This document shows, one piece after another, positions 45,301-48,300 of a stretch of DNA of 64,000 bases (its first letter is position 1; each line of letters opens with the position of its first letter). The notes beneath the pieces were generated by a model. It did not search any database. It saw nothing but the letters and a program-made list of their open reading frames with translations, and had not been told where the DNA came from. Position numbers and translations under genes: made by a program. This stretch comes from Euglena gracilis (Eukaryota), in the NCBI GenBank assembly GCA_039621445.1, contig CP154954.1, forward strand, positions 15,704,140 through 15,768,139. The letters run 5' to 3'.

Positions 45301-48300
45301 GAATTTCCGCCACCACAGGTGCCTCCACCTCACCGGTACCTTCAGCCGGCCGGTGATGGACGCGTTTGTGCAGGGGCTGGACTGCCTGGACCCCCGCCTG
45401 TGCCGCTCCTTTTGTACCCCCAAGGGTGAGCCAGAATGGCTTTTGCCTTTCTGGTGTCTCTCCCTGCCTGTCTGCTGCCTTTGGGAATCGCACGGCCCGG
45501 GCCAGTTGGAGGAGGTGCGTCGCGGGAGTGCGGCCGAACTGAGGCCAGCCAGTCTGAACCCTAACCCTTGCGCCGTTCACTAACCCCAGGGTATACCGTA
45601 TCGTAAATATTGCAAGTGTTTGCTAATACTCCGGGGGGAGTAATAAAGCACACCCTTGGTGTGGCATTTTTTTTTATTTTCCATATTATCTGTTTATACA
45701 GACACACCCATATGTACAGCTATGGCAGCCTCCAATTAAAGGGCCCCCAGAGGGGGCCCTTTAGTTGGATCGGGGGGCGGCAAATTTTTTTTCTGTTCAT
45801 GATGTAGTAGGGTTATAGGGTTAAAGAAAACATATATATATAGATATATATATATATATACATACATATATATGTATGTATGTATGTATATATGAATGTA
45901 TATATATATATGTATATATCATGTTGTTGTTGTTGTTGTTGTTGCTATATCATTGGAATATTTCCCTTTTTGTATACTACCCGCCCCTCCCCCCGTGCAA
46001 TTGACGCCCCCGGGCAATTGTCACCCCTGGCTGTGCCGGCCAGTTTGTCACCCCGGGAAATTGGCACCCCCTTCCGTGCTGCCCAATTTGTCACCCCCGC
46101 ATTTGCAGTATTGCATTGTGAACTCTCTTTTCACCGACAACTCGATTGATCTTCTATTTCGCTACAACTTGCTAAGAATTTTCACACGCCAAACGCTCTG
46201 TACAATACCACGACCATTTTTCCTGTGTTCATTTGTGTTTCCGTTGGTTTTCTTGGTCATTTGGATTAAATGTGATTTACATGGGTGGGCAATTCACGCC
46301 CCCGGGCAATTGACGCCCCCGAGCAATTGTCACCCCCCCCTCTGTGCTGGCCAAATTGTCACCCCGGGAAATTGTCACCCCCCTCCGTGCTGCCCAATTT
46401 GTCACGCGACAATTGCCCGGGGGGTAAATATTTTATATTGTTGTCCTTTTCTCACACATGCCATATTTCAAGATTATATACATCTTGTTACATATATACA
46501 TCTTGTTAAGCATTTCAACTTCATTATGTGTTATTAATATGCCTGTGCAAAGGTGCTTTCCGGAGGTGTTTCTGCTTTATTTGAGAATTTTTATCTGCCT
46601 GTGACATTATTCCTCAACAAGGGAGGAGGGAGGTTTGCTTTTGAGGGTTGTCCGCCGGGGATGGTCGAATCGGGTATGCCCCCGTTGTCCTTGGAATTCC
46701 TGAAGAATGAAACGCACAGGGCGAAATTTCGAAGTTGGCCCATGAGCCTCGACAGGCTAAACCCTGGGGGGAAGGTTGGTCTCGGAATTCCCTGGGATGC
46801 CTGCCCGGGTAAGCACGGGGGGAGGGGTTACACGGGGGGGGGGGTGACATGGGGGGTGACACGGGGGAGGGGGGGGGGGGGCACGGGGACACAGGGGGGG
46901 GACACGGGGGGGTGACATGGGGGGGGGTGACACGGGGGGGTGACACGGGGGTGACATGGGGGGGGTGACACGGGGGGGGGGTGACACGGGGGGGACGGGG
47001 GGGGGGGGGGGGGGGGACACGGGGGGGTCACGGGGGTGGGTGGGGGGGGGGGGGACATGGGGGGTGATACAGGGGGGACATGGGGGGTGACACGGGGGTG
47101 ACACGGGGCGGACACAGGGGTGAGAAGAAGCCTTAGTGCAACTAAGGGGGACACAGGGGTGACACGGGGGGTGACACGGGGGGGGGGTCATTGGGATGAC
47201 ACGGGAAAGGGGGGGTGACACGGGGGGGGTGACACAGGGGTTACACGGGGGAGGGGGGTGACGCGGGGGGGTGGCATGGGGGAGGGGGGGGACATGGGGG
47301 GTGCACGGGGGGGGGGGGAGACACGGGGGGGGGGGGTGACATGGGGGTGACACCGGGGGGGGTGACACGGGGGGGGTGACACGGGGGGGGTGACACGGGG
47401 GGGTGACACGGGGGAGGGGGGGTGACACGGGGGGGATGACACGGGGACACGGGGGGGTGACATGGGGGTGACACGGGGGAGGGGGGGGGTGACACGGGCA
47501 GGGGATTTCTTAAGCCGGAGGGTACCCAGCCAGCCAGCCAGCCAGCCAGCTCAAATCCAGCCAGCAGCCCAAATTCGGGCTGGCAGCGCCCCCCCGGGGC
47601 TTGAGTGAAATAAAGTCGGGTCCAGCCCGGCCGGAGGCCGGGCCAGCTGGCCGCAGGCTGGCCAGCCAACTGGGCTACCCAGGTCACCTATCCCTGCATT
47701 TCTCCCCCTCACCACAGCTTCCTCCATCACAGCCCACCAGCCTTGCTCTAGCTCCATCCACCAAAACGTCGAAGATGGCAAAAAATTTTGGAAATTTTTG
47801 TTTTTCGCCGACCCAGCCCATCCCAGCCCCCTCCAGCCCCGGACCCCCCTCCCCCCCCCCTATCCCCCCGGGTGGGTCCAGCCAGCCAGCCAGCCAGCTC
47901 AAATCAAGCCAGCAGCCTTTTTGCTAGCCGGAGGCTGGACCCCCCCCCCCCGGGGGGTCCTTAAGAAATCCCCTGGACACGGGGAGTGACACGGGGGGAC
48001 ATTGGGGGTGACACGGGGGGTCTTCGAGATTGAAGTGGGGCCAAATGAAAAGTGCCCTGCGGGAGAGCAGCGGCACGCATTCTCCAGCTGGAGGCGCTGT
48101 ACGTGCCGGCCAAGTTTGCGGAGGCGGTGCGCGGCAGCGCTTTGGCGGAACGCCGGCCGGCGCTGCGGGTCAACGGCCAGCAGGACCGAACCTCCAAGCC
48201 CGGCGCAACCCCACAGGGGAGGGGCTGAGCGTTGTTGACCTCTGCACCCATGTTGCTGTAGCTGGCTGGCCATTGTGGCCACCGTCCCCCCCCCTTCGAT

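Follow-up and report, generated by a model that had tools for sequence, protein, structure and literature searches.

A family of CAG...CTG-ended elements with 8-bp target duplications in Euglena gracilis and its likeness to nonconventional introns

The stretch of Euglena gracilis contig CP154954.1 analysed here (64,000 nt, positions 15,704,140 to 15,768,139 of the forward strand in assembly GCA_039621445.1; hereafter the window) contains a Ufd2/UBE4-like gene, the mnmG/GidA gene, and a region from 42 to 64 kb in which 0 of 150 open reading frames (ORFs) matched Pfam and in which short exons or untranslated transcripts are still possible. The latter region holds E47, a 477-bp non-coding transposable element of the miniature inverted-repeat type (MITE), and its relatives E49, E55 and E60. 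An earlier note on this DNA had proposed that E47 has the architecture of the nonconventional (NC) introns of euglenids. Our analysis showed that the MITE family of E47 is real and that its architecture agrees with the NC intron code, in support of a hypothesis that was already known. We consider it probable that an E47-type element together with one copy of its target-site duplication (TSD) forms the unit of an NC intron, and that intron 13 of mnmG is one such insertion. The features of the window are listed in Table 1.

Table 1. Positions of the elements, genes and related features in the window
Feature	Position	Strand	Details
E47 (MITE, non-coding, 477 bp)	47499..47975	.	Perfect 16-bp terminal inverted repeat (TIR) CAGGGGATTTCTTAAG / CTTAAGAAATCCCCTG
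E47 left TSD copy	47491..47498	.	GACACGGG; directly abuts element
E47 right TSD copy	47976..47983	.	GACACGGG; directly abuts element
(GGGGGGTGACAC)n tandem array, split by E47	46814..48021	.	Repeat analysis
E60, full-length E47 relative	60008..60465	.	80% identity over 421 nt; TSD GTTGAGTT/GTTGAGGT
E49, copy of E60 with internal deletion	49456..49683	.	In duplicated segment
E4, subfamily B	4889..5134	.	TSD GTGGGGGT/GTGGGAGT
E55, subfamily B	55633..55948	.	TSD CTTGGGGT/CTTGGGGG; ends 12/16 complementary
E15, 1158 bp	15247..16404	.	Perfect 12-nt TIR CAGGGCGTTGCT, perfect 8/8 TSD CCCCCTTC
mnmG intron 13, 269 nt	28606..28874	+	Core 28609-28869 (261 nt) plus 8 nt; protein homology
mnmG/GidA (MTO1-like) gene	20538..38223	+	Pfam on stop-to-stop ORFs and homology mapping
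Ufd2/UBE4-like gene (Ufd2P_core and U-box)	1343..13246	+	Pfam and homology mapping

The perfect 16-bp CAG...CTG TIR and the perfect 8-bp TSD attributed to E47 in the earlier note were confirmed: its arms (47499-47514 and 47960-47975) are complementary at 16/16 positions, and its flanks are identical at 8/8 positions in the 8-nt register only. In both the minimum free energy (MFE) and the centroid fold, the two ends are predicted to pair as a closing helix. The surrounding (GGGGGGTGACAC)n array, which the earlier note does not mention, could in principle mimic a flanking repeat. Because identical adjacent 8-mers are rare in this array (7 of 668 positions, five of which are plain G runs), and because the array continues unbroken across the site when E47 and one 8-mer are removed, E47 is an insertion into the (GGGGGGTGACAC)n array. 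The element also carries a 40-nt subterminal direct repeat (47530-47569 and 47878-47917, 98% identical), and none of its ORFs of at least 75 aa matched Pfam.

All four relatives that the earlier note had placed at 4889, 49456, 55633 and 60008 exist and have 7/8 flanking repeats, but two of them are not independent insertions. E49 and E60 share the same flanks and lie in a segmental duplication (49311-53314 and 59862-64000; 94% identical over at least 3.9 kb, approximately 10.5 kb apart and reaching the window end), so that they represent one insertion event; most of the 5' interior is missing from E49. E47, E60 and E49 constitute one subfamily (A) and are 76-82% identical to each other, and E4 and E55, which are 68.5% identical, constitute subfamily B. 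E15 was absent from the earlier list and has subterminal motifs in common with E47. Related copies are thus found in the window at two independent loci for subfamily A and at two for subfamily B, in addition to E15, with element lengths of 228-1158 bp. Terminal complementarity is 11-13/16 in E4, E49, E55 and E60 and 12/12 in E15, and CAGGG is present at both termini of E47, E4, E49, E55, E60, E15 and mnmG intron 13.

The elements have a common 3' subterminal layout, in which a motif of CCAGCAGCC and a T run is followed by a C/G-run palindrome and then by TTAAGAAA(A/T)CCCCTG. The subterminal motif CCAGCAGCCWTTTT had 7 matches, compared with 0.17 expected. The same motif was also observed outside the defined elements, at 8874-8887, 52044-52057 and 62742-62755, which may be fragments of further copies. 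No ORF of at least 75 aa overlapping the free elements matched a Pfam family. The term "free", as used in the earlier note, applies to the copies that lie where no coding sequence is detectable but not to E4, which is nested inside a conventional GT-AG intron of the Ufd2-like gene (4776-5843) and occupies only part of it. E15 is located between the Ufd2-like gene and mnmG. A metagenome scan with the 16-nt TIR yielded 116 loci; blastn of the elements against all 116 gave matches of only 19-21 nt, and we rejected these loci as family copies and regard them as chance matches. Among the 80 of the 116 loci listed, 79 had a single match and one (L008) had three tandem matches.

The 8-bp duplication was also recovered by a blind scan of the window, which collected pairs of CAG and CTG separated by 40-1500 bp and complementary at 10/12 or more terminal bases, and required their flanking 8-mers to match at 7/8 positions or more. 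The scan returned 94 pairs, six of which had matching flanks; these six were E4, E15, mnmG intron 13, E47, E49 and E60, and E55 fell narrowly below the TIR threshold. No matches were found when the flanks were displaced by 3, 8 or 12 nt, and in 40 dinucleotide shuffles pairs averaged 36.6 and flank-matching pairs 0.03, the latter never exceeding 1. Flank identity peaked solely at n=8 in all seven elements (8/8, 7/8, 7/8, 7/8, 7/8, 8/8 and 7/8), and ranged from 1 to 5 of 7 at n=7 and from 3 to 7 of 9 at n=9. With E49 and E60 counted as one event, these seven elements represent six independent insertions. The 8-bp duplication is present at all six independent sites, each in the 8-nt register only, and the 8-bp TSD described in the earlier note was upheld. 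When the scan for TIRs and TSDs was opened to any terminus, it returned mostly (AT)n microsatellites and one long palindrome, and the four weak non-CAG candidates that it added were set aside.

According to the sections of a 2025 study that deal with splicing signals, NC introns of Euglena follow the code 5'-N3-CAG...CTG-N5-3', with pairing just inside CAG and CTG (PMC12501133). The knock-in genetics described there showed that splicing needs CAG, CTG, a 3-nt spacer before CAG that does not tolerate a change in length, and a 5-nt spacer after CTG, together with pairing after CAG and before CTG and a purine that opens the next exon; rule-based synthetic 50-nt introns were spliced, also without flanking direct repeats (PMC12501133). 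Since the two spacers add up to 8 nt, an element plus one TSD copy would make a ready-made scarless intron. E47 satisfies each of these rules, and when read as an intron it would extend from 47496 to 47980; the proposed resemblance to NC introns was thereby borne out.

The introns of mnmG provided a comparison within the same window. A metatranscriptome homologue (P0001, 581 aa) aligned as 22 exon pieces at 22924-38214, most of them with about 55-100% identity, and the N-terminal exon (from 20538) was placed via Pfam and a bacterial homologue only. To place the intron borders, all donor and acceptor positions were tested for the in-frame join that best matched P0001. From 22924 onwards, the 21 introns comprise 3 of the GT-AG type, 8 of the N3-CAG...CTG-N5 type and 10 that fit neither. 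In the eight CAG/CTG introns, exactly one junction of each homology-equivalent set has CAG at +4 to +6 and CTG at -8 to -6, and the next exon starts with a purine in all eight. The junction of intron 19 (36155-36760) scored lower than the two top sets, and we entered it manually from the coordinate given in the earlier note; the join is in frame (...SLLEAHGYG). Homology mapping confirmed the CAGGG...CCCTG arms reported for the introns at 26047, 26865 and 36155, but the putative arm at 39442 is situated past the stop codon of mnmG and was not verified as an intron: three CTG partners are possible there, each with 3/8 flank identity, and there is no anchoring coding frame.

Removal of the 269 nt of intron 13 restores a protein sequence that matches P0001. 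The core has CAGGGGATTTAGTGAA at its start and the complement of CAGGGTATTGAGTGGC at its end (12/16 complementary), and the 8 nt before CAG (GGGCCGCC) and after CTG (TGGCCGCC) match at 7/8 positions in the 8-nt register only. Because GGCCGCCC is present on both sides, the junction slides over 10 starts (28601-28610), which form two sets (1 and 9 starts) with equal scores and a synonymous codon as their sole difference. Of these 10 equivalent junctions, only 28606-28874 obeys the N3/N5 code, and a purine starts the next exon. Seven of eight pairs are predicted after CAG and before CTG, with the terminal helix present in both the MFE and the centroid fold. The predicted junctions of intron 13, like those of E47 read as an intron, are G..C and not GT-AG. 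On the borders given by protein homology, intron 13 equals a CAG...CTG core and precisely one 8-nt repeat copy. The window contains the exact 10-mer CAGGGGATTT three times: E47 has it at each end, and the third occurrence is at 28609, where the CAG of intron 13 lies. This agrees with the earlier statement that the termini of E47 equal the 5' arm of this intron.

The eight CAG/CTG introns of mnmG match at 5, 4, 2, 6, 7, 4, 5 and 4 of 8 positions between their own flanks (mean 4.6/8), compared with a cross-pair mean of 2.9/8 between the flanks of different mnmG introns (permutation p 0.0003, or 0.002 without intron 13). The cross-pair control removes position-specific composition, and the excess in these eight introns looks like the remains of decayed 8-bp duplications. 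With a perfect 9-nt TIR (CAGGGTTTG), flanks identical at 6/8 positions and one junction that fits both GC-AG and the N3-CAG...CTG-N5 code, the 77-nt intron 26865-26941 is a candidate for an "intermediate" intron type.

We propose that E47 is a non-autonomous cut-and-paste DNA transposon from a group with CAGGG...CCCTG ends and an 8-bp target duplication, mobilised presumably by a transposase encoded elsewhere. In a transcript, the RNA would be cut 3 nt outside the 5' end of the element and 5 nt outside its 3' end, that is, at the same point of the left and right duplicates, after the fifth base. One intact 8-mer would then stay in the mRNA, and the removed RNA would consist of the element and exactly one 8-bp copy. 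An insertion into an exon would in this way disappear from the transcript without a scar, starting with the first generation, and, because the termini are mutually complementary, this would hold for both orientations. The mnmG intron 28606-28874 would be such an exonic insertion, with common descent from the same stock as the free copies, which may themselves be excised at the RNA level. We advance a broader proposal much more tentatively: the lengths of the N3 and N5 spacers may not be arbitrary but sum to the TSD of one CAG...CTG-ended (hAT-like) superfamily, and the whole NC class (about 70% of E. agilis introns) may have arisen from such insertions. The excision machinery might then have been tuned to erase an element plus one duplication, or might be derived from a transposon system, and E47-like families might be the still-visible source.

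Several observations weigh against the view that E47-type insertions become NC introns. All element copies are only 68-82% identical and are therefore old; the closest copy to E47 in the window is 80% identical despite the unblemished ends and TSD of E47, and the description of the family as "recently active" in the earlier note is overstated. In local alignments of the intron 13 core with the six free elements, z was 0.5-3.2 and 0-21 of 60 shuffles scored equally. Given this weak interior similarity, the family link of intron 13 rests on about 12 terminal nt and a C run before the 3' arm, and since CAG, CTG and pairing are needed for splicing, the terminal likeness could be convergent. The earlier suggestion that a family member can constitute a whole intron thus stands for the architecture of 28606-28874 (a core plus one copy), but not for its interior, which has no convincing similarity (z at most 3.2). 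The mnmG intron borders rest on protein homology; for 10 of the 21 introns, no junction of the homology-best set conforms to GT-AG or to the N3/N5 code, and among these, introns 4 and 7 have CAG and CTG with outside sums of 9 and 7, respectively, according to a manual reading of the junction output. The sample consists of six independent sites in one 64-kb window, and no autonomous element was found within the window.

The duplication length and the termini point to hAT as the best-fitting source of the transposase. The elements share with hAT MITEs of the Ac/Ds type an 8-bp TSD, (T/C)A(A/G)NG termini (as quoted in PMC6027215), a short TIR, repeated subterminal motifs and the lack of coding capacity. 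They differ in being G+C-rich with long G/C runs, and the hAT assignment is by TSD length and termini only. The earlier label "hAT-like" is compatible with the 8-bp duplication and the CAGGG termini, but no transposase was detected by Pfam among 448 of the 458 window ORFs of at least 75 aa, the 10 omitted ORFs being located at 20918-22088 and 63154-63767. Target sites of hAT elements have the consensus nTnnnnAn. This consensus was not seen, with T at position 2 in three of six sites and A at position 7 in none of six. Membership of another superfamily with 8-bp duplications, such as Merlin, P or Mutator-like elements, is a possibility that we consider doubtful. Merlin of E. gracilis is likewise a euglenid DNA transposon, two families of which make 8-bp TSDs according to the parts of PMC8101967 that describe them, and no hAT transposase was present in the window ORFs scanned. 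However, Merlin encodes a DDE_Tnp_IS1595 transposase, of which none was found in the window, and has an unrelated TIR with a conserved terminal 5'-GG (PMC8101967); the E. gracilis Merlin copies given in its S3 Appendix end in ...ACAAGTAC, unlike CAGGGG. The elements described here have CA...TG termini that the duplications directly abut, and their CAGGG ends match the hAT consensus quoted in PMC6027215.

It is also conceivable, although we think it unlikely, that the MITE family is real but resembles NC introns by convergence or coincidence, and that intron 13 arose otherwise. The interior of intron 13 has no significant similarity to any free copy, other mnmG introns carry different arms (CAGGCC, CAGCC and CAGCG), and CAG, CTG and the adjoining pairing are functional requirements (PMC12501133). 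However, intron 13 passes the same blind filter for TIR and TSD as the free copies, with flanks that match at 7/8 solely in the 8-nt register, and the 10-mer CAGGGGATTT is confined in the window to this intron and the two ends of E47. Flanking repeats are, moreover, unnecessary for splicing according to the knock-in sections of PMC12501133, yet the eight introns keep excess 8-nt identity (p=0.0003). The free elements resemble euglenid NC introns in their CAG/CTG ends, in the pairing inside them, in the correspondence of element plus 8 nt to the excised unit, and in 8-nt direct repeats such as that at the recently gained gapC intron (PMC4770533); by manual reading of the flanks, a purine follows in five of the six free element sites. 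They differ in their location: no coding sequence is detectable around E47, E15, E55 and E49/E60, and E4 sits within a conventional intron. None of these copies is required as an intron.

Staggered double-strand breaks repaired with filler DNA would create 8-nt repeats without any transposase, but this origin appears very improbable. It has been proposed for the 8-nt repeat at the newly gained gapC intron, in passages of PMC4770533 that also describe a high euglenid break-rejoining activity. Such repair would not yield one repeat length at six independent sites, nor conserved inverted termini, nor dispersed copies with full-length similarity. Intron transposition through circles has reportedly been discussed in one paper. 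That the dispersed copies are NC introns which spread as excised circles, re-inserted via reverse splicing and reverse transcription, is hardly credible even though NC introns are released as full-length circles (PMC11282704), since a re-inserted circle would bring along 3+5 nt of its old site, whereas the 8-mer varies from copy to copy and duplicates local sequence (the array unit GACACGGG at E47), and the copies occupy a conventional intron and regions in which no coding sequence is detectable.

Insertion of E47-type elements into exons would resemble the behaviour of introner elements of Micromonas, dinoflagellates and Fritillaria, as reviewed in part of PMC11282704, in that an insertion and its target duplication make a removable intron and copies occur in and outside genes. 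Introners differ in using spliceosomal sites supplied by the element or the duplication; neither E47 nor intron 13 has insertion-made GT-AG sites. Removal of the E47 family would use the non-spliceosomal, circle-forming NC pathway, with cuts set by the distance from the terminal helix.

The proposal that NC introns derive from MITEs dates from 2013 and was made in a text stating that transposable elements had not been identified in euglenid genomes by then (PMC3935182). In 2016, a gapC intron found in only one E. agilis strain was reported to have an 8-nt direct repeat, and break repair was suggested (PMC4770533). In a review of 2024, CAG/CTG are depicted as TIRs accompanied by TSD-like repeats (PMC11282704), a 2025 study still terms the origins of NC introns unclear in its discussion of them (PMC12501133), and a report of December 2025 calls a MITE origin "plausible to assume" (PMC12621601). 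The idea of a MITE origin is thus a published hypothesis and is not new, and the 8-nt repeat at a gained intron has likewise been published (PMC3935182, PMC4770533). In the portions of the literature on euglenid NC introns covered here, we found no concrete family of elements that has the same termini and a fixed 8-bp duplication and also occurs outside introns, and no statement that 3+5 equals the duplication length; a sliding-distance chart in the SI of PMC12501133 may already show the 8-nt limit. Our analysis adds concrete non-intron copies, a uniform 8-bp register and the match of 8 to the N3 and N5 spacers. The E47 family offers concrete support for an origin of euglenid NC introns by transposon insertion. 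If this origin is correct, the question can be put to a direct genome-wide test by means of existing assemblies and RNA-seq and of the knock-in reporter already published.

The Ufd2-like gene differs in intron type from its neighbour. Of its 14 mapped introns, 13 have a GT/GC-AG solution, which reaches the homology-best score in 10 and comes within 4 score units of it in the other 3. The 21 introns of mnmG, by comparison, include 3 of the GT-AG type and at least 8 nonconventional ones. Because the introns of the Ufd2-like gene are almost only GT-AG, none could join the flank test. Within mnmG, intron 6 (25445-25748) slides over 11 homology-equivalent starts (25445-25455) and fits neither GT-AG nor CAG/CTG. 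The 5240-nt intron 14 contains 26 copies of an 18-nt tandem repeat (GATGCAGATGCTGGACAA; 30942-31404), and a Pfam match to LED_rpt at this repeat was below the cut-off and was rejected as spurious.

Another dispersed repeat family was observed at 27108-27759, 52080-52835 and 62782-63521. Its copies are 84-88% identical, start with CAG(CAG)GGGGGGGG and end with CCCCCCCCTG; mnmG intron 11 contains one of them, and the other two belong to the duplicated segments. Their flanks have no clean 8-nt duplication and possibly a 6-nt TATCAG repeat. A search of the window against Rfam gave 0 matches. The ORFs at 56852-58108 (419 aa) and 44498-45622 (375 aa) were rejected as genes, their translations being of low complexity; the latter, on the minus strand, is a translated simple-repeat array with a His/Thr/Tyr-rich low-complexity stretch. 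Simple-repeat arrays that are mutually 73-89% identical are present at 1-330, 1497-1750, 44930-45280 and 54420-54580. An inverted repeat with arms of about 200 nt (42740-42937 and 44013-44198, 86% identical) encloses a tandem array of approximately 110-nt units at 43120-43727.

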